From an uncultured Acidobacteriota bacterium (GTDB taxonomy: Bacteria; Acidobacteriota; Thermoanaerobaculia; Thermoanaerobaculales; Sulfomarinibacteraceae), in the NCBI GenBank assembly GCA_963823445.1, contig CAWGLT010000023.1, positions 151,018 to 215,017 of the forward strand: 64,000 nucleotides of DNA, written 5' to 3'. Below the pieces are notes generated by a model, which saw nothing but the letters and a program-made list of their open reading frames with translations, was not told where the DNA came from and searched no databases. The first letter of the stretch is position 1, and the number at the start of each line of letters is the position of its first letter. Made by a program: the position numbers and the translations under genes. Positions 3,190-57,578 of this stretch are shown here, piece by piece.

Positions 3190-3539
3190 GAGCCCCTCCG
3201 TTTCGTTGCTGCGTTCGGTGAGGTCGCTCGGATCCGCGACCGTCGTCTCGAGGGTGCGGATCGACGAAACCCTCGGCAGTATAGCCGGTCCCCGGCCGGC
3301 CGTCATGGGCAGAGCCCGACAATCCTCCCGGTCGTTCGAGGCCCGGTTCGACGAAACCTCGGGCGGCGGTCGACGTAAACTATTGAGATGTCGCCTTGAG
3401 TGATCGGCGTGTCCCCTCAGGAGAGCGGGCCGGCGCCGGCTGTCTTGTTCGAGCCAGGTGTGGGAAGGCGAACTCGGGTGCGCCGGTTGGCATTTTGATT
3501 GCATTTGGTGCGTTGACGACTCGGAGGAAAGGGGACGCC

Positions 3540-4142
3540 ATGTGCTCGTTCGAACTCAAGAGGATCTCGACCATTGGACTCGCAGCGGCGGTTGTCGTCG
3601 TGCTCGTCGGTTGCTCATCCGCGACACCGACCGAAGATCCCGGGATCGATCGCGTCGGAAAATACGTGGTCATGAACAAGGGCTCACAGGCGGAGGTGGC
3701 CGTCGGCTACCGCTACGCCCAGCAGAACCTGGGATCCGAGTGGTTGGTGCTCGAGGTGGCGGCGACATCGCCCCCGAAGCAAACCGCCGTGATGAGACGT
3801 GACAAGGTCTCGGTGCAGACGCCGGCCGGGGAAACCGTTCTCCTCGCGACCCAGCGCGAGTTCAACGAAGCCTATGGCGCCCTCCAATCGGTGCTCCGGG
3901 CTGCCGATGTGGTGCGCGACCCGATGGAGTATTGGCCGCCGCGGAAGAGCACCTGTGCGATCCGGTTCTTTGTCGAGCCGGGGAGTGGAGTCTCGTTCGA
4001 CGAGGTCACGGTCAATGACTTTCGGGCCTGCCAGGGGAGGTTCCTTTTCAATATCCCGGGCGGCGTTCAGGCCGGTCGGTATGTCCTGACCCTGGACCTC
4101 GACAAGAGCGAGATGGAGATCCCGATCACCTTCACGGAGTAG
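3540..4142 (+). CDS. lipoprotein, function unknown
   Basis: ATG at 3540 is preceded by GGAGGAAAGGGG. Signal peptide with lipobox (VVLVGC). Confidence 0.65.
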   Translation: MCSFELKRISTIGLAAAVVVVLVGCSSATPTEDPGIDRVGKYVVMNKGSQAEVAVGYRYAQQNLGSEWLVLEVAATSPPKQTAVMRRDKVSVQTPAGETVLLATQREFNEAYGALQSVLRAADVVRDPMEYWPPRKSTCAIRFFVEPGSGVSFDEVTVNDFRACQGRFLFNIPGGVQAGRYVLTLDLDKSEMEIPITFTE

Positions 4143-4161
4143 CCGGACTCCTACGATTACA

Positions 4162-4189
4162 AAGGGGGCCCCGCTCGGGGCCCCCTTTC
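4162..4189. terminator. bidirectional intrinsic terminator hairpin
   Basis: AAAGGGGGCCCC-GCTC-GGGGCCCCCTTT, a perfect 12-bp stem flanked by A and T runs, between convergent genes. Confidence 0.85.
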
Positions 4190-4208
4190 TTCCGTTCTGA
4201 AAAGCGGC

Positions 4209-5627
4209 TCAGGGGAAGACCCCGAGCTCGCGGTACGACACGGCGATCTTGTCGATGGCGGCGATCATCGAGGCGGTGCGGAGATCGACGCCTTCGCCCT
4301 TTGCCATCTTGATGCCCCGTATCTCATGATAGGCCTCGATCATGGTTTCCTCGAGACCCGAGTTGACGAGATCGATCTCGTCGGGGCCCTTGGCGATCTC
4401 GGCGATTTCGGCGTCGGTGAAGATCCGGTTGGTGGAGTTCTCGATGGCCGACAGGAGCATTCGGCTCGAACTCTCGACAAAGCGCTTTTCCATCCGGCCG
4501 AAGCGCACGTGCTGGAGGTTTTTCAACCACTCGAAATAAGAGACCGTGACACCGCCGGCGTTGATGTACGCGTCGGGGATGATGAGCGTGCCCCGCTCGA
4601 AAAGAAAGTGCGATGCGTCCGAGCTGATGGGACCGTTGGCCGCCTCGGCGATGATCTTGGCCTGGATCCGCGGGGCGTTGTCCATGGTGATGGCGTTTTC
4701 TAAGGCGGCTGGAATCAGGATGTCGCAGTCGATCTCGAGACCGGCGTCGCGGGAGGGAAGAGCCACGGCGCCGGGGAAACCAAGGATCGAACCGGTCGCC
4801 TTGCGATGGGCCATCAAGGACTCGACATCGATCCCGGAAGGGCAAGAGATCGAGCCCTCGTACTCGACGACACCGACGATCACCGCGCCGCCGTCCTCCT
4901 GCATGAACTTGGCGGCGTGATAGCCGACGTTGCCGAGACCCTGAACCACGACCCGTTTCCCCTCGAGACCCGGGGTCAATCCGAGCGCCCGCATGTCGTC
5001 GCCGACGAGGCAGGCTTCGCGGAGGCCGAAATAGACGCCGCGGCCGGTGGCCTCGGTCCGACCCCGGATCCCGCCCTGGCCGACCGGTTTCGCGGTGACG
5101 CAGCCCAGACCGTCGATCTCGTGCGGGTTGAGGGTCATATAGGTGTCGGCGATCCATGCCATCTCACGGCTCGAGGTCGCGAAGTCCGGCGCCGGGACAT
5201 CGAGGCCGGGGCCGATGAAGTTTTTCTTGTTGAGCTCGTAGGTATACCTGCGGGTGATGCGTTCGAGTTCTTTCACCGAGTACTCGTGGGCCGAGATCCT
5301 GACTCCGCCCTTGGCCCCGCCGAACGGGACGTTGACGATCGCGCACTTGTAGGTCATGAGAGCCGACAGCGCCATGACCTCGTCTTCGTTGACGTTGGCG
5401 GCATACCGGATGCCGCCCTTGGTGGGCAACTTGTGTTGGCTGTGTTCCGCACGCCAGGCATGGATGACCTTGAGCGAACCGTCGTCTCGGATGAGTGGGA
5501 AGGTGAAGTGAATGACGCTGTTGACGCTCTTGATCTGCTCGAGCAGTCCGGGCGGGTGGTCGGTCAATGCGGCGGCTCGATCGAAATTCTTGTTGACTTG
5601 ATCGAAAAAACTGAGATCGGCGGTCAT
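4209..5627 (-). CDS. gdh: Glu/Leu/Phe/Val-family (glutamate) dehydrogenase
   Basis: 472 aa starting at MTADLSFF (ATG at 5627, GAGGGGG SD). Motifs [15 protein letters not shown] and GLGNVG. The upstream part of the 599-aa track ORF looks non-coding. Confidence 0.9.
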
Positions 5628-5790: not shown

Positions 5791-6327
5791 ATGAAACGCA
5801 TGATGACGTTGACGATGGTCGTGATCGGACTCGGGATAGCCGGGATCCGCGCAGCGGAGAACGGGGGGCAAGAAATGGGCGAAGTCATTTCCGTGTGGTC
5901 GGTGGAAGAGGGGAAGATGATCTCGACTGCCAGAATCATCAAGAGCGATGACGATTGGCAGCGGGAGCTGTCTCCGGAGGTGTACAAGATCACCCGAAGA
6001 AAGGGCACCGAGATGTCGTGCTCCGGAGCCTACTGGAAGAACGATCGCGAAGGTGTCTACCGCTGCGCCGCCTGTGGGAACGATCTCTTCGTCTCGACCA
6101 CGAAGTACACGTCCGGCACGGGCTGGCCGAGCTTCTTCCAACCGGTCCACGACGCAAACATCGGCAGCGAGCGCGACACCAGTCTGGGCATGGTGCGCGT
6201 CGAGGTTCATTGCGAGCGTTGTGGATCCCACCTCGGCCACGTCTTTCCCGACGGACCGAAACCCACCGGAAAGAGGTATTGCATCAATTCGCTGGCCCTC
6301 GACTTCGTCGAGATGGAAGTCAAGTAA
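5791..6327 (+). CDS. msrB: peptide-methionine (R)-S-oxide reductase with signal peptide
   Basis: Two CxxC pairs ([21 protein letters not shown]) and GWPSF. Signal-like [18 protein letters not shown]. The start could also be ATG 5767. Confidence 0.85.
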
Positions 6328-6330
6328 TTT

Positions 6331-6437
6331 TCAATTATGAATTTTTAATTATGAATTATGAATTGCGGAAGCTCTTCGACACCGTCGTGAGAATCTGCGA
6401 TGGAATTCATAATTCACAATTCATAATTCATAATTGA
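6331..6437. repeat. AT-rich hairpin built from heptad repeats (GAATTAT)n / (ATAATTC)n
   Basis: The 5' arm TCAATTATGAATTTTTAATTATGAATTATGAATTGCG pairs imperfectly with the 3' arm GGAATTCATAATTCACAATTCATAATTCATAATTGA. The loop is ~30 nt of normal GC content. It sits between msrB and the next gene. Confidence 0.85.
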
Positions 6438-9715: not shown

Positions 9716-11512
9716 TCAGGAGCCCGTCGCAGGCAGGGCTGGATGCATGACGCGATAGATCGGCAGAAGACCGACCTGCTCGTCCCAGTGCGGGGTCCGC
9801 CGGTACCACCAGTCGTAACGCGCGCGCCCGTCGGCGGCGAAATCGGGATTCTCGAGCGCCGACTCCCACTCCGCCCTGGTGGCGTCGTCGGCGAGCATCT
9901 CGACCGCCAGCTCCTCGAGCTTGTCGAGCCCGATATAGGTCTTTTGCTCGAAGACCGAGTCGAGCGCGCCCCAGCGCAGCAGCGAATCCGGCGCCTCGGG
10001 TTCGAAGAGCTGGACCGCGACGGCGAAGTCCGGCTGGTCGGCCGGGATCCACAGGCTGCCCGCGGGGATCCGGCGGGTCTCCGTCTGCCGGGTGGTGACG
10101 AAATCCCTGACCATCACCGTGCCCTGGAAGGGAGCCTCGGCGAAGACCGGTGCGGCGACCCGGATGGTCTCGACCTCGAGCTCGACGGGCGCGGACAGGC
10201 GCTGCGTCACCAGGTGGTGCGCTTCGACCACCTCGACGAGCTGCGGCCAACCCGCGTGGACGAGATAGCCGCGCGGGCGCGCGAGCTCGAGTTCGGGCGC
10301 CGCAACGTGCCGGAAGGAGATCTCGGCCGGGACGATCTCGTCGCGGTGGTAGACAGTGCGCGGTCCGCCGGTGACCACCGAGGTCTCGGTGGTGGTGCGG
10401 TAGGACGGCCAGGTGAACTCGTCGTCGCTGTCGACGCCGCGCCACCGCACGATCACGGTCGACGGATCGGCGTCCGGTCCTGCCGAGAGCGCGGGTCCTC
10501 GCTTCCGCCGCCTGCGACCGCCGCAACGAGCGTCGACCCGGACCGGCCGGTCTCGACGATGAGGGCGTCCATGAAGTCGCGGTTGGCGAGCACCCGATCC
10601 CGGTACGGCTTGTGCGCGTGCATCTCGATGAGGATCGACGGCCGATTGATGAGCGGGAAGAACCCGGTCGAGTAGCGCGGCAGCTGGATGTCCGACCAGT
10701 CGACCCCGCTCGTCGGGTCGTCCCAGTCGACGAACGCGAGGTAGGGGCCGTTGGGGTGGCCGGCGGCGGCGGTGGCGTCGAGCACCCGCGGCAGGTGCGC
10801 AGCGACCCAGGCGTCGACCGCGGGGTCGAGTCGAGGTGCCTCGGCGACCATCCAGGTCAGAACCCAGGCGTGGTCGGAGCCGTTGGTGACGTGGTTGTCG
10901 ACGTGGAGGTGCGGCCGCCAGTCGGCGACGAGCTGCGCGAGCGCCCGCGCCTCGGGGCTCGCGAGCCGGAGGAAGTCGCGGTTGAGGTTGAGCCCGGCGG
11001 TGGTGGCGCGAAAGCCCATGCCCTCGACCGGGCCGTTCTGGTTGGGCCGGTTGTACGGCGAGACCCGCTCGTGGCCGTCGAGGTTGAAGATCGGCACGAA
11101 GAGCGTCACCGCCGCCTCGGCGAGATCCGGGCCGTCGGCCCAGGGCGATCTCGCGCAAAAGCATGAGGGTGGCGTCCTTGCCGTCGATCTCGCCGGCGTG
11201 GATGCCGCTTTGCAACAGCAGGATCGGCTTGCCGGCGGCGCGGGCAGCGGCCGGGGTGAAGGCTCCGTCGGACGAGACGATGACGAGGGGCAGCTCGCGG
11301 CCCTCGGCGGTTTCGCCGAAGCTCGTGACGCGGATGGTCTTCGGAGCGCGCGACTCGACGCGGCGGAGGAAGTCCATGGTCTCGGCAACGGTCGATGTGG
11401 CGCGGAAGTCGGTCTTCTCCGCCACCGTCTGCCAGACCTCGGGGACGTCCTCGGCGGTTGCGGGGCAGGGGAGGAGCAAGACAAGGCCGGCGAAGAGGGA
11501 AAGTCGTTTCAT
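9716..11512 (-). pseudogene. M14-family zinc carboxypeptidase, coding sense split over two reading frames
   Basis: The signal peptide, HxxE (SGIHAGEIDG) and the C-terminal third read in the frame of ORF 9716..11608. The central ~650 nt (TLFVPIFNLDGHER, NLNRDF, LHVDNH, ILIEMH) reads only in the frame of ORF 10453..11484. Frame switches are near 11140-11160 and 10485-10510. Confidence 0.55.
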
Positions 11513-11519
11513 GGCCGCC

Positions 11520-11547
11520 ACTCTAGCCCATCGCATTCTTACCGCAA
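11520..11547 (-). promoter_or_regulatory. sigma70-like promoter TTGCGG-16-TAGAGT, 7 nt before the ATG of the M14 gene
   Basis: Minus-strand reading is TTGCGGtaagaatgcgatgggcTAGAGTggcggccATG. The same module occurs at 13406-13433. Confidence 0.45.
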
Positions 11548-11595
11548 AGACCGCCAAGAACGCAAAGGACGTTGCAAAGGACATCGCCATATTGA
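11520..11595 (-). repeat. 9-nt-periodic repeat module E, copy 1
   Basis: ACCGCAAAG ACCGCCAAG AACGCAAAG GACGTTGCAAAG GAC. Homologous to 13403-13475 and to the arms of the hairpin at 16281-16438. Confidence 0.8.
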
Positions 11596-11699
11596 CCCGT
11601 CGCGGCATCGCACAATGGCGTGCCCGGCACCCCGAGGGACGTTTCTTTCCCTCCGACCCGGGGCGGCATCTGCCGCTGTCGGCCCGGCCGCTGCCGCTG

Positions 11700-11800
11700 C
11701 CCCCGACAGGCTGGAAGCCTGTCGCTACACAGGGGCCGTTCTTGATTGTGTAGCGACAGCCATCCTGGCTGTCGTCGGTGACGTGCCCGAACGCGGTACC
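11700..11800 (+). repeat. REPIN-like triple-hairpin element, copy A1
   Basis: GACAGGCT-GGA-AGCCTGTC (11705-11723), GCTACACA-15nt-TGTGTAGC (11724-11754), GACAGCCA-TCC-TGGCTGTC (11755-11773), with a conserved tail GTCGGTGACGTGCCCGAACGCGGT. Confidence 0.9.
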
Positions 11801-11907
11801 CTACCGCTGCCCCGGCCGCTGTCAGTGACGCTGTCCCGGCCGCTGTCGCTGTTCCCGGTTCTCACGGCTCCGGCCTTCCGGTCCGCCTTCGGCGGCCCGG
11901 CGTCGCC

Positions 11908-12126
11908 CCATCGGCGGGGTCGCTTGGGTGGTGAATGGGAAGGGCTGCGACCCCGCCGATGGCGCGCCGGCGGCCTTCTTCGTTGCCGGAGCAGAGGACC
12001 GCATCGCGCCTCCCGGGGGAGCCCGGTATGACAATGTGCGCAACGGGTTGCGGTGCCGGGAGGACTTTGGGGCACATTGTCAAACCCCGCACCCCGAGGA
12101 TCGCCCCTTTCCCTCCGACCCGGGGC
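11908..12126 (+). repeat. composite structured repeat B, copy B1
   Basis: 16-bp hairpin CCATCGGCGGGGTCGC/GCGACCCCGCCGATGG (11908-11962), then hairpin TGACAATGTGC/GCACATTGTCA (12029-12082), then a GCACCCCGAGG tail. Homologous to 26611-26886 (inverted) and 40839-41053. Confidence 0.85.
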
Positions 12127-12236
12127 AGTCTCGGTTCGGGTCCCGGGTGCGGTCGCTGGTTGCTGCCGCTGTCCCTGCTTGCTGTCGCTGATCGCTGCCA
12201 CTGATTGCCGCCGCCGCTCTGTGGTGGCCGCGGAAC

Positions 12237-13385: not shown

Positions 13386-13402
13386 CAGCCGATCCCAAGG
13401 AC

Positions 13403-13475
13403 GCCACTCTAGCCCATTGAATATTCACCGCAAAGAACGCCAAGATCGCAAAGGACGTCACATTTGACGTGTGGG
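13403..13475 (-). repeat. 9-nt-periodic repeat module E, copy 2
   Basis: ACCGCAAAG AACGCCAAG ATCGCAAAG GACG followed by the small hairpin ACGTCA-catt-TGACGT. Confidence 0.8.
13406..13433 (-). promoter_or_regulatory. sigma70-like promoter TTGCGG-16-TAGAGT upstream of the SGNH hydrolase gene
   Basis: Minus-strand reading is TTGCGGtgaatattcaatgggcTAGAGTggcg. It is the second copy of the promoter-bearing module E. Confidence 0.4.
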
Positions 13476-13604: not shown

Positions 13605-13761
13605 CATGATGGGATGATTCAATAATGTGATGGTTTTGCGATGGGTCGAAGGCGAGGCGCCGGCGGCCTCCCTCTGAGCCGGGAGAACACGGCCGCAACG
13701 TTGTAACCCGTGGTTAGGGATGAACGTCGCCAGGAACGCCCCGCCGAGCCTGATGCTGGCG

Positions 13762-13868
13762 TCGCGGGTGGCCGAGGGAGCCACCTTTAGCATTGTTCGG
13801 GATCAGCGTTGAGCCGAAGATCGGCGACTCACACCCGAACAATGACAAAAGACGGCACCCCGTTCGAC
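13762..13868 (+). repeat. two-helix hairpin element, copy D1
   Basis: GGGAGCCACCTTTAG CATTGTTCGG (13791-13800) ... CCGAACAATG (13835-13844) ACAAAAGACGGCACCCCGTTCGA. Near-identical flanks occur at 52622-52729. Confidence 0.85.
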
Positions 13869-19391: not shown

Positions 19392-19458
19392 GGGAATCGC
19401 TCGATTGACATCCCCTCGGCACCGGCCGACGCGTTCCCTGTCGATGCCCCTGCCGCTG

Positions 19459-19600
19459 CCCCCGACAGGCTGGAAGCCTGTCGCTACACAGCGGCCGTTC
19501 TTGATTGTGTAGCGACAGCCATCCTGGCTGTCGTCGGTGACGTGCCCGAACGCGGTCCCCTGCCGCTGCCGCTGCCGCTGACGCTGCGGCTGCCGCTGCC
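19459..19600 (+). repeat. REPIN-like triple-hairpin element with (GCTGCC)n tail, copy A2
   Basis: Hairpins at 19464-19482, 19483-19513 and 19514-19532. Nearly identical to A1 and A3. Confidence 0.9.
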
Positions 19601-19603
19601 GTC

Positions 19604-19659
19604 GGTCGCTGCCCCGGTCGCGCGGTCGCTGCCCCGGTCGCTGCCCCGGTCGCTGCCCC
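19604..19659 (+). repeat. 12-mer microsatellite (GGTCGCTGCCCC)n
   Basis: Four full units and one truncated unit between A2 and A3. Confidence 0.9.
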
Positions 19660-19797
19660 CGACAGGCTGGAAGCCTGTCGCTACACAGCGGCCGTTCTTG
19701 ATTGTGTAGCGACAGCCATCCTGGCTGTCGTCGGTGACGTGCCCGAACGCGGTACCCTGCCGCTGCCGCTGCTGCTGACGCTGCGGCTGCCGCTGCC
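19656..19797 (+). repeat. REPIN-like triple-hairpin element with (GCTGCC)n tail, copy A3
   Basis: Starts 197 bp after A2. Hairpins at 19661-19679 and 19711-19729 flank the central GCTACACA/TGTGTAGC hairpin. Confidence 0.9.
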
Positions 19798-22177: not shown

Positions 22178-22249
22178 GCCGACCGGACCCGTGCGGGTTG
22201 ATCCGGCGGAATCGCTCATCCCGGGTGGCGATGGACAGCACCCCCTCGC

Positions 22250-22405
22250 TTGCGTAGACTCGAGAGGACCGAATATGGGGAAGACGGTGCGAATCCGTCG
22301 CGGACCCGCCGCTGTGACCGGGGACGATGACCGGCAGAACCACTGCAATCGGTGATTGTGGGAAGGGCCGGTAGGTAGGACGATCCGGGAGCCAGAAGAC
22401 CCGCA
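22250..22405 (+). promoter_or_regulatory. cobalamin (B12) riboswitch
   Basis: GGGGAAGACGGTGCGAATCCGTCGCGGACCCGCCGCTGTGACCGGGGACGA ... CAGAACCACTG ... GGGAAGG ... GGGAGCCAGAAGACCCGC matches the conserved core and B12 box as I remember them. It lies directly upstream of a BtuF-like binding-protein gene. Confidence 0.8.
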
Positions 22406-22440
22406 GTTCGGCTTTGACGACCCTCGTGGATTGGGGTTTG

Positions 22441-26610: not shown

Positions 26611-26886
26611 GCCCTCCAGGACCCGCGGAAAACCACGCCCCATCGGGGTGCCGGGTTTGACATTGTGCCGGAGCGACCGACCAGCTTCGCGGCGCTCCCC
26701 GCACAATGTCATACCGGGCTCCCCCGGGACGGGCGATGAAGTCTGATCTCCCGGCTACGAAGCAGGCCGCCGGCGTGCCATCGGCGTGGTCGCAGCCCTT
26801 TCAATCAACCCGCGAGCGACCACGCCGATGGCGCGACGCTGGGCCGCTGGGACGCCAAAGCGTCACGGCGGCCCGGAAGGCCGGGG
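26611..26886 (-). repeat. composite structured repeat B, copy B2 (inverted)
   Basis: Hairpins TGACATTGTGC/GCACAATGTCA (26658-26711), CCATCGGCGTGGTCGC/GCGACCACGCCGATGG (26778-26831) and GACGC-CAAA-GCGTC (26851-26864). Roughly 85% identical by eye to 40800-41053 when reverse-complemented. Confidence 0.85.
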
Positions 26887-27113
26887 ATGAGGACAGCATC
26901 AGGGGCAGCATCAGCGACAGCGTCAGGAATCACCGACAGCGACAGCGGCGGCGGCAGTCTTCAGGGGCAGCGACAGTGGCAGCAATCAGGGACAGCGTCA
27001 GGAACCAACGGCAAAACGTGCGCGATCGGACGTTTCCCTTGACGCGGATCGCAGCATCAACACTCCTGGTTGTTCTTGATGAGACGGGAATCTGCGCCTC
27101 TGCGTTGAAACCG

Positions 27114-36814: not shown

Positions 36815-37192
36815 CTATTCCAGAGAGAGATCGACCCGGTTGTCCGGACCTTCCCAAACACTCACCGTGAGCAGCGCGCCGCCGATGGCGGCGAGCCTTG
36901 ACTGAAGATCGTCCGCCAGGACCTCGGCGAGGCGCTCCGCGGACGGGGTCGGACGGCCGATCGCCGGGTGGCGGTTGAGGTCGCTGTCCCGCAGCGGCGC
37001 CACGGTCTCGGCGAGGATGCCGTGGACCCCGTGAAAGTCGAGCGCGAAACCCTCGTCGTTGAGGCTTTCCGAGCCGACCCTGATGGCCACCTCCCAGCGG
37101 TGTCGGTGCGATTCCTCGGGTTGCCCGAGGTAGCTCGTGAGAGCGTGACGGGCATCGAAGGACGTCCGAGAATGGATCACCCACCGCGGCAT
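36815..37192 (-). CDS. queD: 6-pyruvoyl-tetrahydropterin synthase family (QueD-like) protein
   Basis: 125 aa. His ligands as FDARH and SHRHRW, plus DFHGV. The Cys normally 4 residues before the HxH motif is absent. The ATG lies 1 nt after the radical-SAM stop. Confidence 0.7.
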   Translation of the reverse strand: MPRWVIHSRTSFDARHALTSYLGQPEESHRHRWEVAIRVGSESLNDEGFALDFHGVHGILAETVAPLRDSDLNRHPAIGRPTPSAERLAEVLADDLQSRLAAIGGALLTVSVWEGPDNRVDLSLE

Positions 37193-37193
37193 C

Positions 37194-39797
37194 TCAGCCT
37201 GCCGATCGGCCGATCGCCGGGGTCAGGCGCTGAGCACCCGGGGGTTGCAGGACAATGCGTTCCCGGCGGATCCGGGACATCTGGACCTCGGTCTCGGTGA
37301 GGCCGAGAGACTCGAGGATCTTCTTGACGCTGGTGGTCGGGCCGGCGGCCTGACGGGCGTTGAGATCGACGGTGAGGCTGCCATCGGCGAGGACGGTCCA
37401 CCGGAGAATCGCGTCGGTCACGGACGGGTCGAGATCGGTCGATGCCTCGGGCCACCGGTATCCCGGCCGTTCGGGGATGCGGTATCGCGATGCGGCGACC
37501 ATCTTCCCGAGCGATGGCGCACCCGGCAGCAGCGGTGTGGCATCGACGATCTCGATCCCGTGCGGCAAAAGCCGATTGACCGCCGTGATGTGTTGTTGCC
37601 GCACCTGCGAGGTGCAGTCCACATCGAAGAGCTCGGCCTCGCCCTCGTGGCCGACGCTGAGGGCCGGCCCCATGGAAAGCCGGATGTGAGGGTTGTAGCC
37701 CTCGGTGTATCGCACGGGAACCCGTCCCCCGCGGATCGCCCGCTCGAGGGCGTCCATCACCTGGCGGTGCGAGAGATACCGCGCGTCGCCCATCTTGGTG
37801 AAGCTGAAGCGATAGCGGTGCTGGACCGGCGCCTGGGCTTCGATCCTGGCCTGGGGCGGCACCCGGGGCTCGGGACGCAGCTTGTAGGCGGCGGTCTTGG
37901 GACGATCGATCTCGGGCATGCTCTCGCCGAGCAGCGGCAGGGTGCAGGCCGCGAGCCGGGTGTCCGCGCCGTCGCCGGGGATTCCGCAGCGGTAGCAGCG
38001 GCCCCACTTGCAGTCTTCGGTGTCGGCTTCGCGGACGGCGCGCCGCCACTCGGCCTTGAGATAACCCTTGCGGACGCCGGCGTCGATGACGTCCCAGGGG
38101 AGGGTCTCGGCGATGTCGCGCTCGCCGAGTTCCCGCTTGATGTCGACGCCGGTGGCATCGACCGCCTTGCGCCATGCGTCGAGGTTGAGAAAATCGGTCC
38201 AACCGTCGAAAACCGCACCCTCGTCGTGCGCGAGTTCGATGGTTCTGCTGAGCTCCCGCCCGCCCCTTGAAAGCAGCGCCTCGAGGACCGCCTCCTCCGG
38301 ATCCGACCAGTTGAAGCGGGTTCCGTTGATCCGCCGAAAGCGATCCCGGAGGAACTCGATCCGGCGCCGTTGCTCGTCGGGGTCGATATACGGCTGCCAC
38401 TGGAAGGGCGTCCACGGTTTCGGGATGAAGCACCCCACCGAGACCTTGATCTCGACCTTGCGGCCGCGGATCCGTCGTCCGGCCTTCGCGAGATTTTCGG
38501 CCAGGATGGCGAGCTCCTCGAGATCGTCGTCGGTTTCGGTGGGCAGCCCGATCATGGCGTAGACCTTGATGGCGTTCCAACCCTTGGAGAACGCGGCCTC
38601 GGCCGCCTTGATCATGTCGGCGTTGGTGAAGGTCTTGTTGATGACGCGCCGGAGACGATCCGAACCGGTCTCCGGAGCGAAGGTGAATCCCGATTTTCGG
38701 ACCCTCGAGACGGCTTCTGCGAGCCCGACCGAAAACGAGTCGGCGCGCAGGCTCGGCAGATTGACCGAAACCCGGCGGTCGGACAACCGGTCGGCGAGGT
38801 TGTAGACGAGGGGTTCCACCTGGGAGTAGTCGGCGGAGGACAGGCTCAGCAACCCGATTTCTTCGAACCCGGTCTCGTCGATCTGGCGCTCGAGCCGTTC
38901 GACGACCCGGGCCGGGTCGTGTTCGCGGACCGGCCGGTACCAGTAGCCGGCCTGGCAGAAACGGCAGCCCTGGGTGCAGCCGCGCATGATCTCGAGCCCG
39001 AGACGGTCCTGGATGACCCCGGCGAAGGGTACGATGGGCGCCTCGGGCTGGTCGGCGAGATCGAGCTCGTCGACCCACACCCGTTTGACGGGGAACGGCG
39101 CGATCGCGGGTTCGGCCCACTCGCCTGGCTTCTCGCCCGTCGCGGGGGTCCAGGTGTAAAAACGCGGGACATAGACCCCTTCGACAGCAGCCAGACGGCG
39201 CAGGATCTCGATTCGGTCGTCGCCGGCTGTGCGGCCGTCGCGGATGGCGTCGAGCATGGTGTCGAGCGCGGCCTCGGCGTCGCCGATGAGGATGGCGTCG
39301 AAGAAGTCGGCCACCGGTTCTGGGTTGGCGGTGCACGGGCCGCCGCCGATGACGAGGGGCTCCTCCTCGGTGCGCTCGACGGCGCGGCGGGTGATGCCGG
39401 AGAGATCGAGGAGATACGGAATGTTGATGAAGTTGAGCTCGGATTGGAGCGAGATGCCGACCACGTCGAAATCGGCGATGGAGTGATAGGACTCGAGGGA
39501 GTAGAGGGGAAGATCGGAAGCACGGAGCGCCGCCGCCATGTCGGGCATGGGGGCGAAGGTCCGTTCGGCCAGAGCGTCATCGCGGCGGTTGACGAGGTGG
39601 TAGAGGATCCGGGTTCCCTGGTGGGACATGCCGATCTCGTAGGCGTCGGGGAAGGCGAGGGCGACCCGCAGCGCGACGCTGTCCCACGGTTTGCGGGTCA
39701 GGTTGCGTTCGAGGCCGAGATAGCGCGACGGGCTCTGGACGGTGGGCAGGATCGCGTCCAGGCGCTCGCGCAGGGTTGTCGGGTCGATGGTCGTCAT
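37194..39797 (-). CDS. B12-binding-domain radical SAM protein (TIGR03960-like) fused to a DUF2344/TIGR03936-like domain
   Basis: 868 aa starting at MTTIDPTTL (ATG 39797, GAGGAG SD). CxxxCxxC appears as RGCTQGCRFCQAG. The C-terminal ~230 aa (RYRFSFTKMGDARYLSHRQ) is DUF2344-like. The N-terminal 228 aa of the track ORF are translated repeats. Confidence 0.85.
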   Translation of the reverse strand: MTTIDPTTLRERLDAILPTVQSPSRYLGLERNLTRKPWDSVALRVALAFPDAYEIGMSHQGTRILYHLVNRRDDALAERTFAPMPDMAAALRASDLPLYSLESYHSIADFDVVGISLQSELNFINIPYLLDLSGITRRAVERTEEEPLVIGGGPCTANPEPVADFFDAILIGDAEAALDTMLDAIRDGRTAGDDRIEILRRLAAVEGVYVPRFYTWTPATGEKPGEWAEPAIAPFPVKRVWVDELDLADQPEAPIVPFAGVIQDRLGLEIMRGCTQGCRFCQAGYWYRPVREHDPARVVERLERQIDETGFEEIGLLSLSSADYSQVEPLVYNLADRLSDRRVSVNLPSLRADSFSVGLAEAVSRVRKSGFTFAPETGSDRLRRVINKTFTNADMIKAAEAAFSKGWNAIKVYAMIGLPTETDDDLEELAILAENLAKAGRRIRGRKVEIKVSVGCFIPKPWTPFQWQPYIDPDEQRRRIEFLRDRFRRINGTRFNWSDPEEAVLEALLSRGGRELSRTIELAHDEGAVFDGWTDFLNLDAWRKAVDATGVDIKRELGERDIAETLPWDVIDAGVRKGYLKAEWRRAVREADTEDCKWGRCYRCGIPGDGADTRLAACTLPLLGESMPEIDRPKTAAYKLRPEPRVPPQARIEAQAPVQHRYRFSFTKMGDARYLSHRQVMDALERAIRGGRVPVRYTEGYNPHIRLSMGPALSVGHEGEAELFDVDCTSQVRQQHITAVNRLLPHGIEIVDATPLLPGAPSLGKMVAASRYRIPERPGYRWPEASTDLDPSVTDAILRWTVLADGSLTVDLNARQAAGPTTSVKKILESLGLTETEVQMSRIRRERIVLQPPGAQRLTPAIGRSAG

Positions 39798-39834
39798 GGG
39801 CTCTCCTCGTCCGTGGCCGGACAATATATACCAA

Positions 39835-39851
39835 GTCTCAACATTTGCCGA
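39835..39851 (-). promoter_or_regulatory. possible extended -10 promoter within TTGAGACTTGGTATATA
   Basis: Minus strand reads TTGAGACTTGGTATATATTG about 35 nt upstream of the radical-SAM ATG. The same 12-mer occurs upstream of fmt. Confidence 0.35.
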
Positions 39852-40070
39852 CCCTCGGGGCTTCCAGGATCCGTGCCCGGGTCCGCGTCCGATTCCGTTT
39901 CCGTTCCCGATCCCGATCCCGGTCCCGAATAGCAGCGTCCGGGGCAGTGGCAGCGGCAGCGCCAGGGGCAGCGACCGGGGCAGCGGCAGGAACAGCGGCG
40001 GCGTCAGCCTCCGCGTTTCTTTCCGTGCCCGTATCCGCTTCCGTGACAGATCCGAGCCGATCTGCGATGG

Positions 40071-40838
40071 ATTGTGGGGGCGGGCTTCCAGCCTGCCCGT
40101 CAGGGTTGTTGAAGCCGGCCGTGCGTTCCCGAGAGAGTGCGGGGTATTGGGTCTTGTGGGATCTCGGGTTCCTGTCCTCCTCCCCGGCCTTCTGGGCCGC
40201 CGTGACGCTCTGGCGTCCCGGCGACCCAGCGTCGCACCATCGGCGTGGTCGCGGTTTTCTTTCAGGTTGGGCGGACATTGTGGGGGCGGGCTTCCAGCCT
40301 GCCCGTCAGGGTTGTTGAAGCCGGCCGTGCGTTGCCGAGAGAGTGCGGGGTATTGGGTCTTGTGGGATCTCGGGTTCCTGCCCTCGTCCCCGGCCTTCTG
40401 GGCCGCCGTGACGCTGTTGCGTCCCGGTGTCCCAGCGTCGCACCATCGGCGTGGTCGCGGTTTTCTTTCAGGTTGGGCGGTCATTGTGGGGGCGGGCTTC
40501 CAGCCTGCCCGTCAGGGTTGTTGAAGCCGGCCGGGCGTTGCCGAGAGAGTGCGGGGTATTGGGTCTTGCGGGATCTCGGGTTCCTGCCCTCGTCCCCGGC
40601 CTTCTGGGCCGCCGTGACGCAGTGCGTCCCGGCGACCCAGCGTCGCGCCATCGGCGCAGTCGCGGTTTTCTTTCAGGTTGGGCGGACATTGTGGGGGCGG
40701 GCTTCCAGCCTGCCCGTCAGGGTTGTTGAAGCCGGCCGTGCGTTGCCGAGAGAGTGCGGGGTATTGGGTCTTGCGGGATCTCGGGTTCCTGCCCTCCTCC
40801 CCGGCCTTCTGGGCCGCCTCCGGCGACCCAGCGTCGCA
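40071..40838 (+). repeat. tandem array of four ~206-bp structured non-coding units
   Basis: Units start with ATTGTGGGGG at 40071, 40277, 40483 and 40688 (periods 206, 206, 205). Copies 1-3 are ~95% identical by eye. Copy 4 lacks one internal hairpin and merges into element B3. Confidence 0.9.
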
Positions 40839-41053
40839 CCATCGGCGCGGTCGCGCGTGGGAGGCGGGGAGGGCTGCGACCACGCCGATGGCGCGCCGGC
40901 GGCCTGCCTCGCAGCCGGGAGAGCAGACCGCATCGCGCCTCCCGGGGGAGCCCGGTATGACATTGTGCGGGGAGCGCCGCGAAGCCTGGAGGTCGATCCG
41001 GCACAATGTCAAACCCGGCACCCCGATGGGGCGGGGTATTCCGCGGGTCCTGG
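40839..41053 (+). repeat. composite structured repeat B, copy B3
   Basis: Hairpins CCATCGGCGCGGTCGC/GCGACCACGCCGATGG (40839-40891) and TGACATTGTGC/GCACAATGTCA (40958-41011), with tail AAACCCGGCACCCCGATGGGGCGGGGTATTCCGCGGGTCCTGG. Confidence 0.85.
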
Positions 41054-41170
41054 TCGGGCGCTGTCGCTGTCGCTGATTCCTGCCGCTGTCCTGCCGCTGT
41101 TCCTGCCGCTGTCCCGGCCGCTGCATGCTGCCCCTGCCGCTGTCCCGGATACGGTTGTATCCTCGCGGTC

Positions 41171-42163
41171 CTACCCGCCGATGCCGAACGCCGCGAGGAT
41201 CTCCTCGGCCGCCGCGGTGGCGCTCATCGCGCCGTCGACGACATCGCGTTCGAGGCGCTCGATCCTGCGCTTGATCTCGGGGTGTTCGCGGACGGCAGCC
41301 CGGACGCCCTCGTCCACCAACGACCACATCCAGTGGAGCGCCTGACGACGACGGGCGGCCCCGAATTGACCGGTGCTCTCCCTGAGCCGACGGTGCTCTA
41401 CGATGAGGCCGTGGATCTCGTCGAGACCGTCGCCGGTGACGGCGCTCGTCGTGACCACCTTTGGGACCCACCGGCCGTCCCCGGCCGGCCGGAGGATGTG
41501 GAGGGCGCTTTCGAACTCGGCGCGGGCCCGTTCGGCCGCCGCCCGGTTGTCGCCGTCGGCCTTGTTGATGGCGATGAGGTCGGCGAGCTCGAGGATGCCG
41601 CGTTTGATCCCCTGCAGCTCGTCGCCGGCGCCGGCGAGCTTGAGGACGAGAAAGAAGTCGACCATGCCGGCGACGGAGACCTCTGATTGACCGACCCCGA
41701 CAGTCTCGACGAGAACCATGTCGAAGCCGGCGGCTTCGCAGACAATGATGGACTCGCGGGTCTTGCGCGCAACGCCACCGAGAGAGCCGCTCGACGGCGA
41801 GGGCCGGATGAAGGCGTCGGAGCTTCGAGACAACTCCTCCATCCGGGTCTTGTCGCCGAGGATCGAACCCTTCGAAACCGAGGATGATGGATCGACCGCG
41901 AGGACCGCGACCCGGTGCCCGTGCTCGATCATCCTCATGCCGAAGGCCTCGATAAAGGTGCTTTTCCCCACCCCGGGCACGCCGGTGATCCCGATGCGGT
42001 GCGCCTTGCCGGAGAAGGGGAGAAGCGCCGCGAGAAGCTCGTTTGCCCGGTGCCGGTGATCCACCCGATCCGACTCGATCACGGTCAGGGCCCGTCCGAG
42101 CACCGCCCGGTCGCCAACCCGGACCCCGGCTGCCAGCGAATCGATGGTGTCTGTTGTCCGCAT
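41171..42163 (-). CDS. meaB: methylmalonyl-CoA mutase-associated GTPase
   Basis: 330 aa with P-loop GVPGVGKST, DxxG (VETVGVGQ) and NKAD motifs. Confidence 0.9.
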   Translation of the reverse strand: MRTTDTIDSLAAGVRVGDRAVLGRALTVIESDRVDHRHRANELLAALLPFSGKAHRIGITGVPGVGKSTFIEAFGMRMIEHGHRVAVLAVDPSSSVSKGSILGDKTRMEELSRSSDAFIRPSPSSGSLGGVARKTRESIIVCEAAGFDMVLVETVGVGQSEVSVAGMVDFFLVLKLAGAGDELQGIKRGILELADLIAINKADGDNRAAAERARAEFESALHILRPAGDGRWVPKVVTTSAVTGDGLDEIHGLIVEHRRLRESTGQFGAARRRQALHWMWSLVDEGVRAAVREHPEIKRRIERLERDVVDGAMSATAAAEEILAAFGIGG

Positions 42164-49704: not shown

Positions 49705-49809
49705 CGTGAGACGTGAGGGGGTGAGGAAGTGAGGAGGTTCGAAGGCGAGGAGTGGAGTGTGAAGAACCTCCTAACCCCTAACTCCTAACCCCTCACTCTT
49801 CACCTCTCG
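49705..49809. repeat. heptad-periodic imperfect hairpin (GTGAGGN)n / (CCTAACN)n
   Basis: CGTGAGACGTGAGGGGGTGAGGAAGTGAGGAGGTTC ... GAACCTCCTAACCCCTAACTCCTAACCCCTCACTCTTCACCTCTCG. The right arm overlaps the 3' end of the HD-GYP CDS. Confidence 0.75.
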
Positions 49810-52394: not shown

Positions 52395-52504
52395 TGTGGT
52401 TGATCAACCTCCGGCGGCGCCTGACGATTCCAGGTAACAAGATGATTGCGTCCGGCTGCGGTGCCTGGCGCTCGGGGCGCGATGGACAGCGCATTCAGCG
52501 GCGC

Positions 52505-52546
52505 GTGCCTGGCTCTCTTTTCGTCCGACGAAAAGGTGCCTGGCAC
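52505..52546 (+). repeat. GTGCCTGGC-flanked hairpin element, copy F2
   Basis: GTGCCTGGCTCT CTTTTCG-TCCGA-CGAAAAG GTGCCTGGCAC. Flanks are conserved with copy F3 over ~70 nt. Confidence 0.9.
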
Positions 52547-52621
52547 CGCACGGGAACAATGATGAAAGCATCATGTCCTGGCAAGCGTTTCTGGCAGCGC
52601 CGTCCCGAACCCGATTCTCCC

Positions 52622-52729
52622 ATCGCGGGTGGCCGTGGGAGCCACCTTTAGCATTGTTCGGCATCGAGGTGAGGCCGACGTCGAGGCCACTCTGAATCCG
52701 AACAATGCAAAAGATGGCACCCCGTTCGA
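52622..52729 (+). repeat. two-helix hairpin element, copy D2
   Basis: GGGAGCCACCTTTAG CATTGTTCGG (52652-52661) ... CCGAACAATG (52698-52707) CAAAAGATGGCACCCCGTTCGA. Confidence 0.85.
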
Positions 52730-53915: not shown

Positions 53916-54013
53916 TTCGTGATCTCCCTGCAGGCACGATGGGTGCCGAATGAGTATACGGGGGCTGCGATGCAGGGTTTGACCGAAAACGGGTAGGATG
54001 AGGTGTCAATTTT

Positions 54014-54162
54014 GAATGATGAATTATGAATTATGAATTATGAATTATGAGTTGAGAATTCGGAGTGAGGTGTGAGGAAGTACGTGCTGCGGTAAGGGGT
54101 GCGACACGCCCAACGTCTAACGTCTAACGTCTAACCCCTAACGTCCAACTCCTAACCTCCTG
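54014..54162. repeat. two abutting heptad arrays: (GAATTAT)4 grading into GAGTGAG/GTGTGAG, then (CGTCTAA)3 grading into CCCCTAA/CTCCTAA
   Basis: 7-nt periodicity over about 10 units on the left (54014-54083) and about 7 units on the right (54114-54162), in a divergent promoter region. Confidence 0.8.
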
Positions 54163-57351: not shown

Positions 57352-57428
57352 TTCGGGCTTGCGATGTCCCGGGTTCTGATGATCGGTGCTGGCTCCTGGG
57401 GAACGAAGGACAGCGCGTTCAGCGGCGC

Positions 57429-57470
57429 GTGCCTGGCTCTCTTTTCGTCCGACGAAAAGGTGCCTGGCAC
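57429..57470 (+). repeat. GTGCCTGGC-flanked hairpin element, copy F3
   Basis: Core identical to F2. Lies in the 227-nt spacer upstream of the RNase H gene. Confidence 0.9.
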
Positions 57471-57578
57471 CGCACGGGAAGGGCGCTCAAAGCACCATGC
57501 GAGGAAAGGCGATTCGTTCGGAGCTTCGGGCTAGCTTGGTTTGCCGCCGGAGTGGTGACTGCGCTACCGTCACTCATC

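Follow-up and report, generated by a model that had tools for sequence, protein, structure and literature searches.

Tandem units upstream of an acidobacterial radical-SAM/PTPS operon are probably an amplified fragment of a mosaic intergenic repeat

Introduction

Dispersed intergenic repeats such as ERIC/IRU, BOX, RUP, and Correia/NEMIS are 100–300 nt long, have a conserved secondary structure, lie in both orientations, and are variable at orthologous sites. Tandem small RNA (sRNA) gene arrays, such as NsiR1 in Nostoc, carry their own promoter and terminator in each unit. Clusters of repetitive extragenic palindromic (REP) sequences have been described as singletons reiterated in tandem together with flanking DNA (PMC3733652), and REP doublets forming hairpins (REPINs) have also been described (PMC3116915), as have GTGG variants of the REP tag (PMC3733652). 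Here we analyze a head-to-tail array within a stretch of 64,000 nucleotides (the window) of contig CAWGLT010000023.1, from an uncultured Acidobacteriota bacterium. The array lies in the spacer between meaB and a radical-SAM gene that is followed by a PTPS gene. An earlier note, made from the letters alone, had read it as four copies of a structured non-coding unit upstream of the radical-SAM/PTPS operon. Our analysis indicates that the array is probably a recent, genome-specific, REP-cluster-type tandem amplification of a truncated mosaic intergenic repeat, and not a regulator dedicated to the operon.

Results

Tandem Repeats Finder (TRF) reported a single array at this place, 40071–40818, with a period of 206, 3.6 copies, 96% matches, and a score of 1377. 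The sequence ATTGTGGGGG marks the unit starts at 40071, 40277, 40483, and 40688, giving periods of 206, 206, and 205 nt. Pairwise identities among the first three copies are 96.1% (copies 1 and 2), 95.1% (copies 1 and 3), and 95.6% (copies 2 and 3), so the four head-to-tail copies of about 206 bp and 95% identity had been described correctly. Copy 4 is the same as the others for its first ~183 nt and then continues into an adjoining element. The array was also rightly called non-coding. A coding reading is ruled out by a period that is not a multiple of 3 and by the lack of any Pfam match for the six open reading frames (ORFs) crossing the array.

Inspection of the sequence recovered the three hairpins that had been proposed for the unit, with the same stems and loops. 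The first, hairpin A, consists of GTGG followed by GGGCGGGCT-TCC-AGCCTGCCC, a 9-bp stem with one G:T pair and a 3-nt loop, and is identical in all four units. Hairpin B, CCGAGA...TCTCGG, lies at 40129–40167 and at the corresponding positions of the other copies, and within the window it occurs only inside the array. The third, GACGC-loop-GCGTC, has the loops TCTG, TGTT, and AGT in copies 1 to 3 and TTTG in an inverted homolog, and is absent in copy 4; it is the tip of a ~17-bp stem, hairpin C, found at 40192–40229 in copy 1. In copies 1 to 3 the hairpin-C loop (40209–40212, 40415–40418, 40621–40623) makes up 4 of the 206 positions and contains 3 of the 14 variable columns, where ~0.3 would be expected. 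Relaxed constraint or a mutational hot spot in the exposed loop could produce this excess.

Unit 1 (40071–40276, plus strand) is composed of REP hairpin A (40078–40098), hairpin B, a short tract, and the 5' part of a larger element, here called E (40178–40253), which includes hairpin C and the left arm of the long E hairpin (40234–40252). On its 5' side it has GCGATGG, as solitary REP-A copies usually do. Units 2 (40277–40482, plus strand) and 3 (40483–40687, plus strand) have the same composition. Ahead of unit 2 lies the junction GGCGTGGTCGC|GGTTTTCTTTCAGGTTGGGCGGAC, where the left arm of E meets the end of the inter-unit linker; in unit 3 the hairpin-C loop (AGT) is 1 nt shorter. Unit 4 (40688–41053, plus strand) is a complete A-B-E mosaic, with hairpin A at 40695–40715, hairpin B at 40746–40784, and a full-length E at 40794–41053 (nhmmer E-value 1.6e-69 over model positions 3–272). 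This E unites the tail of copy 4 with what the earlier note had listed as an adjoining element (40839–41053). It belongs to a short hairpin-C subtype, with the right arm of the long hairpin at 40876–40894 and a hairpin closed by GACATTGTGC/GCACAATGTC at 40959–41010.

A window-wide repeat search showed the 206-nt unit to be composite, its 3' part (about 40172–40252) being the start of the dispersed element E. Comparisons were made with 106 sequences, or 730 kb of related DNA, in which L-numbers (e.g., L063) label loci and contigs from related metagenome-assembled genomes (MAGs) and metagenomes. The 3' half of the unit (positions ~101–183) shares 80–94% identity with E copies in nearly every locus from three related MAGs. 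A 27-mer of hairpin A, scanned exactly across metagenome contigs so that only exact matches were counted, was found in 71 contigs, mostly as an ordinary extragenic REP with the GTGG tag and often with an inverted copy as in REPINs. The earlier comparison of this hairpin with REPIN-like elements therefore holds for it as a REP-type hairpin. In about 16 other loci the order A, B, start of E recurs, and in at least 10 metagenome contigs A-B is preceded by the 3' end of another E and a conserved linker. Two A copies are 431 nt apart in L063, and E copies are 415–433 nt apart in L079, L078, and L105. The placement of A-B between successive E copies, together with spacings of ~430 nt, indicates that the natural repeating unit is A-B-tract-E, of ~430 nt, and that tandem runs of it are common in the clade.

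Aligned to the 431-nt unit of L063, the 206-nt unit matches two stretches, the first ~192 nt (A, B, the tract, and E as far as the left arm of its long hairpin) and, at the far end, the final ~20 nt of linker; unit 4 aligns from end to end. Within the 730 kb of related sequence the junction GGCGTGGTCGC|GGTTTTC...AGGTTGGGCGGAC occurs only at the three internal boundaries of the array. It can be explained by a putative deletion whose ends were CGTGGTCG-like direct repeats in the left arm of E and in the linker that follows E. Of the outer E helix and the long hairpin, units 1 to 3 retain the left strands only; the matching right strands are present a single time, at 40876–40894 and beyond. Compared with 200 dinucleotide shuffles, the folding of the 206-nt unit has a z-score of −1.67 on the plus strand (13/200 as good) and of −1.87 on the minus strand (8/200). 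With such values, and with one strand only of two E helices, the unit does not stand alone as a structured RNA. The proposal that it is a structured unit under selection could not be upheld, since it is a deletion derivative of the ~430-nt A-B-E mosaic with a junction found only here and an ordinary folding energy. In L030, L034, L038, and L092, too, partial 5' fragments of E lie beside a full E in the same orientation. As they break off within the long hairpin or close to it, that hairpin may favor slippage or deletion.

The genes on both sides of the array are on the minus strand, as had been stated, and were assigned with Pfam: meaB at 41171–42163 (MeaB, E = 6.4e-111), the radical-SAM gene at 37194–39797 (867 aa; Radical_SAM_N2, Radical_SAM, DUF2344), and after it the PTPS gene at 36815–37192, also on the minus strand (PTPS). 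Four syntenic loci (L031–L034) were obtained through MeaB homologs of 84–86% identity, and a fifth, L086 (80%), from metagenome contigs. Their meaB/radical-SAM spacers measure 273 (L086), 320, 834, 863, and 1177 nt, as compared with 1373 nt in the window. Hairpin A and the array are absent from all five orthologous spacers. E or an E remnant is present in the same orientation in four of the five, and the L034 spacer has in addition a second E 5' fragment and a B-like remnant.

The radical-SAM gene start is common to all six loci. The gene-proximal ~45 nt, GTTGAGACTTGGTATATATTGTCCGGCCACGGACGAGGAGAGCCC-ATG, are near-identical in the five spacers read (the window and L031–L034) and overlap a promoter-like site with the match TCGGCA-17-TATATT. 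Site and ribosome binding site (RBS) together occupy 39798–39851 on the minus strand, between the array and the gene. This was the only promoter-like site found in a promoter/terminator scan of the region, and inside 40071–41053 that scan, by consensus only, returned no sigma-70-like or intrinsic-terminator-like site on either strand. With respect to neighboring genes, as called by a crude gene caller, E takes all four orientations (11, 9, 4, and 4 cases). The array thus lies farther upstream than the promoter-like site of the radical-SAM gene, shows no conservation with that gene, and contains an element found in all orientations. This argues against an operon-specific regulatory role and makes a link to the radical-SAM/PTPS operon unlikely. 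A 5' leader or riboswitch of the radical-SAM operon was rejected because the array is upstream of the promoter-like/RBS block and absent from the five orthologous loci. On architecture, riboswitches in general (the array is upstream of the promoter) and CRISPR (there are no unique spacers) were rejected as well. An iteron reading was set aside without a dedicated test, as nothing in the locus pointed to a replicon.

Low-complexity tracts bracket the array and the E that follows it, and TRF and an inverted-pair search agreed with the earlier note on their inverted arrangement. On one side, period-6 tracts span 39889–40008, (CCGATC)-like at 39889–39928 and (GGCAGC)n at 39932–40008, with a similar tract at the same relative position in L034. 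On the other side, a (GCTGYC)n hexamer tract on the plus strand (41059–41123, or to 41146) follows E, as at other E copies. The arms 39968–39999 and 41093–41124 are 94% complementary. Throughout the clade, (GGCAGC)n, (GCTGYC)n, and (CGGNNN)n tracts of period 6 separate nearly every repeat module, be it A-B, E, or the four-helix-bundle cassette described below. Besides the two at the array, such tracts lie between modules at 11800–11845, 12150–12215, and 26894–27002, where they flank other E copies of the window, at 19557–19659, and in the L031–L034 spacers. G-rich versions, e.g., GGGGCAGGGGCAGCGACCGGGGCAGGGGCAG in L031, look G-quadruplex-capable.

To collect E, a 20-mer invariant in the three window copies was scanned in species-representative genomes. 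It hit 28 loci, which came without exception from three uncultured Acidobacteriota MAGs in the Microflora Danica series. A profile search of all the sequences compared gave 72 near-full-length copies and many fragments. Relatives carrying the modules are labelled Acidobacteriota or Thermoanaerobaculales, and a scan of viral contigs gave 0 matches to the E core. In the window there are two full copies besides that of unit 4, both solitary. The copy at 26616–26896 (minus strand) has the long hairpin-C subtype and is 92% identical to E at 40870–41053. The copy at 11863–12122 (plus strand) has the short subtype, shows compensatory changes in two helices, and is preceded by a different REP-bearing module at 11666–11841. 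Both had been noticed as homologs (26611–26886 and 11860–11962) and both are real, but the second extends to about 12122. The short subtype, to which copy 4 belongs, is an established one, with 7 of 35 copies including the one at 11863.

E folds over ~270 nt into an outer helix (CCGGC/GCCGG), a hairpin of variable length with the third array hairpin at its tip, a long hairpin of ~20 bp, and a second long, irregular hairpin, the one closed by GACATTGTGC/GCACAATGTC. In 35 copies, paired cells make up 98.2% and compensatory change is seen in 8 pairs (27 cells), a level reached by 0/500 shuffles, with slid controls giving 0–6 cells; of the 80 pairs predicted, 26 occur in two or more Watson-Crick types among 71 copies. 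E is an undescribed family with a covariation-supported fold, and it is the more interesting part of this locus than the array. The earlier note had taken the conserved stem and free loop of the third hairpin as a sign of selection on a fold. This stands insofar as stem, loop, and a helix that covaries across 35–71 homologs are concerned, but it is a property of the E family and not of the 206-nt unit. Neither the array nor E had a match in Rfam 15 at gathering level, and at E ≤ 10 the spacer gave only noise of 15–18 bits, in line with the remark that no described RNA family could be recognized. The sole Rfam gathering-level match in the window is a cobalamin riboswitch at 22219–22422 (plus strand), scoring 88.8 bits where the gathering score is 31.5.

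The ends of the E consensus show no visible terminal inverted repeats of the kind that would mark a miniature inverted-repeat transposable element (MITE). Filled and empty orthologous sites differ in several modules at once, so that neither element ends nor a target-site duplication could be made out by comparing them. Variably occupied sites include L031 942–1193, L033 3202–3446, and L033 7227–7471, compared with the window and with L032/L034. The DUF2147/ABC-F spacer, for example, measures 593 nt with E in L031 and 75–125 nt without it in L034 and L032. Presence and absence at orthologous intergenic sites across species mean that members of the family have been gained or lost since the species diverged.

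RNAalifold energies (−193 vs −196) did not discriminate between the strands of E, and the wobble asymmetry on shared pairs was used instead. Among 54 helix pairs predicted on both strands and read in the E(+) orientation, A.C/C.A cells number 123 and G.T cells 33, and 23 pair positions lean toward A.C as opposed to 6 the other way. This excess places the wobble pairs on the E(−) strand. Consistent values were obtained for E at 40790–41053, with a z-score of −3.1 on the minus strand (0/200 shuffles) and −2.0 on the plus strand. The favored strand at this locus is the window minus strand, which is the sense of meaB and the radical-SAM gene. Hairpin B has the same polarity as E: most homologs carry A.C at its fourth pair, which reads G.U on the minus strand, the window carries A-T, and L078 and L105 carry G-C. 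In hairpin A the polarity is reversed, the G:T pair lying on the plus strand. On these substitution patterns, the E family appears to be selected for a fold in one specific single strand, and the bias fits RNA and single-stranded DNA intermediates alike.

All-against-all clustering of 879 candidate ORFs from the 106 sequences revealed no RAYT (REP-associated tyrosine transposase), other transposase, or reverse transcriptase partner among the recurrent clusters. When ten of these were scanned with Pfam, nine were housekeeping-type or unannotated, and the remaining one, the one recurrent non-housekeeping cluster near E, was a ~135-aa four-helix-bundle protein (PF05635 23S_rRNA_IVP/TIGR02436). 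Its gene is in the E(−) sense in at least 8 loci that share no other recurrent neighbor-gene cluster: L012 3604–4005(−), L028 374–775(−), L035 874–1269(−), L029 ~4900–5303(+), L017 6814–7215(+), L030 2460–2861(−), L026 6969–7235(−), and L086 4458–4724(−). E begins about 30–40 nt past the stop codon (about 90 nt in L029), and in most cases a second E of the same orientation lies upstream. Just 5' of the ORF there is a giant nested hairpin (~4010–4200(−) in L012, with equivalents in L028, L035, L029, and L017). The RBS and ATG lie in its outer stem of ~26 bp, and its inner stem of ~27 bp is perfectly paired although wholly different in sequence between loci. This predicted hairpin, which covaries between loci, would sequester the RBS and start codon of the gene, and is reminiscent of RNase III-processed rRNA intervening sequences. 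The 64-kb window has no four-helix-bundle gene, and the adjacency is a lead about E rather than an explanation of the array. To our knowledge, the role of such Avd-like genes outside diversity-generating retroelements has not been established. Literature searches on the four-helix-bundle family and on Thermoanaerobaculia repeats returned nothing useful.

Several other repeats were recorded in the window. A second family, with a 197-nt unit, is present as 1.8 tandem copies at 19436–19797 and singly at 11666–11841. Its REP-type hairpin (CCCCCGACAGGCTGGAAGCCTGTCG) differs from hairpin A, and the family is flanked by (GCTGYC)n tracts like those at E. REP-bearing modules have thus been doubled in tandem outside the 40-kb locus as well. 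A dispersed module at 13737–13817 and 52598–52678 (79% identity between the window copies) combines the hairpin GGTGGCCGAGGGAGCCACC with TTTAGCATTGTTCGG beside it, and this hairpin module recurs in the ABC-F/RsmB spacers of relatives (L031 ~3490–3535, L032, L033). A 63-nt repeat (11510–11572 and 13396–13458) is rich in CATCGC, GCAAAG, and CGCCAAG, a motif set that accompanies solitary REP-A copies in many marine-sediment metagenome contigs. A 111-nt direct repeat (52465–52575 and 57389–57499) has 87% identity between copies 4.9 kb apart. Intergenic heptamer microsatellites occur in this 65% G+C genome at 6325–6364, 6404–6435, 49768–49798, 53997–54060, and 54106–54157. Their motifs are AATTATG, which also occurs as an inverted pair separated by 39 nt, and AACCCCT/AACGTCT, and related GGATGCT tracts fill the orthologous spacers of L031 and L032.

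Discussion

The composition of the 206-nt unit, the family it comes from, its junction, and the absence of the array from orthologous loci are established by the comparisons presented here. From them we infer an order of events and a recombination mechanism. The meaB/radical-SAM spacer would have started with two neighboring A-B-E units. The left one would have lost the part of its E that runs from the left arm of the long hairpin into the linker beyond E, by deletion between short, directly repeated CGTGGTCG-like motifs, leaving a 206-nt A-B-E5' unit. The A-B direct repeats, ~100 nt long, would then permit unequal crossing-over or replication slippage, and the truncated unit might in this way have been raised to three copies in front of the intact fourth.

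An array of this origin most likely has no operon-specific function. At most it may act as REP clusters are thought to, by analogy through stable stem-loops that the meaB transcript would carry at its 3' end, on the meaB-sense strand. Properties ascribed to REP clusters are the binding of gyrase, IHF, or Pol I and the stabilization of upstream mRNA. Some points weigh against amplification of a functionless fragment. Deletion first and amplification second is a reconstructed order, not an observed one, and ORF clustering of the 106 sequences placed no RAYT or other transposase beside any copy. Moreover, three sequence signals leave room for an RNA or single-stranded DNA function: E is strongly conserved, its wobble pairs are biased toward one strand, and substitutions are in excess in the hairpin-C loop of the array copies.

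Such a function could take the form of transcription of the array, and of E generally, from the window minus strand, the product working as a structured RNA that stabilizes or processes the meaB 3' end or has an Avd-like protein as its partner. The wobble pairs on E(−) (by cells as well as by pair positions), the better minus-strand folding of E at 40790–41053, the A.C (G.U on the minus strand), A-T, and G-C alternatives at the fourth pair of hairpin B, and the TIGR02436/PF05635 gene in the E(−) sense beside E in at least 8 loci are all consistent with it. We nevertheless regard this as unlikely. The array has no promoter-like or terminator-like site on either strand, and E has no orientation bias relative to neighboring genes, so that read-through would often yield the wrong strand. 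Units 1 to 3 lack the partner strands of two E helices, the window lacks the four-helix-bundle gene, and the strand bias is equally explicable by single-stranded DNA intermediates, as in REP/RAYT elements. A related and likewise doubtful possibility puts E in the foreground, as an undescribed family of ~270-nt single-stranded nucleic acids (RNA or single-stranded DNA) of a Thermoanaerobaculia-like clade that is tied to Avd-like genes. The array would then be made of partial copies, possibly decoys or processing sites on the meaB transcript. If this were true, E could be the RNA partner or the mobility signal of a small selfish cassette with an Avd-like gene.

It is much harder to see the array as a cis-acting DNA element of the radical-SAM/PTPS operon, whether as a set of sites for protein binding or as an insulator that separates meaB from the radical-SAM gene. 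Its position about 220–1000 nt upstream of the promoter-like site and the four identical copies of several motifs would suit such a role. However, five orthologous loci share the gene start and do without the array, one of them with a spacer of just 273 nt, and every module of the unit is a dispersed repeat found beside unrelated genes. Equally improbable is an artefact in which the assembler expanded or mis-joined the repeat, error-prone as tandem repeats are in assemblies. An artefact would give identical copies, and these have private substitutions, three different hairpin-C loops, and a fourth copy of the other E subtype. The closest relatives, furthermore, are Nanopore long-read MAGs from Microflora Danica (PMC12313526), and such reads would span 0.8 kb. 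A MeaB protein identical to that of the window is found in a single record, from a 504,745-bp contig that is in keeping with data of this kind. No independent assembly of the array was found: exact-protein look-ups with MeaB and the radical-SAM protein returned nothing, and the PTPS protein matched two short Logan contigs that end inside the radical-SAM gene.

As a lineage-specific amplification of a repeat in a spacer of fast turnover, the array does not warrant annotation as a regulator of the radical-SAM/PTPS operon, and an apparent candidate for a novel regulatory RNA array is thereby removed. The analysis also brings to light that these soil and sediment Acidobacteriota carry a rich set of undescribed intergenic modules, including several REP types, a covarying element of 270 nt, and hexamer and heptamer tracts. 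Orthologous spacers differ five-fold in length with these modules, which will break short-read assemblies and yield spurious ORFs.

Set beside known systems, the locus shows partial likeness to several. Integron attC sites and cassettes come to mind because E copies are structured repeats of the same orientation with variable inserts, some with a small ORF (E-IVP-E), and fold in a strand-specific manner. However, E has 270 nt and several helices where attC is a single imperfect hairpin of 57–141 nt, its copies are scattered among housekeeping genes, and no integrase was seen among the ORF clusters of the loci examined. Arrays of the NsiR1 type share with this one the head-to-tail arrangement of small non-coding units upstream of a gene. 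The array differs from them in that its units are truncated parts of a larger fold, in which the consensus scan detected no promoter or terminator. ERIC/IRU, BOX, RUP, and Correia/NEMIS are similar to E in size class, dispersal, conserved fold, and variable presence at orthologous sites. In contrast to them, E has no visible terminal inverted repeats or target-site duplication, shares no sequence with them, and is confined to a narrow acidobacterial clade.

Hairpin A has the features of a REP: it is a short imperfect palindrome with an unpaired GTGG tag directly 5' of the stem in every copy, and it is extragenic and of high copy (10 occurrences of the core CAGGCTGGAAGCC in the window, with 0.18 expected). 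It forms inverted doublets of the REPIN type in L083, L100, and other contigs. Within the array, by contrast, A is a singleton in head-to-tail repeats and takes up only about 35 of the 206 nt, and no RAYT gene was seen in any locus examined. REP clusters and bacterial interspersed mosaic elements (BIMEs) resemble the array in architecture, as it too is a mosaic of a REP and other conserved motifs, repeated in tandem with flanking DNA, extragenic, and varying between related genomes. What sets this array apart from them is the partner that was amplified along with the REP, part of a covarying multi-helix element of 270 nt that is far larger than the linker motifs of BIMEs, and the period-6 tracts that lie between the modules.

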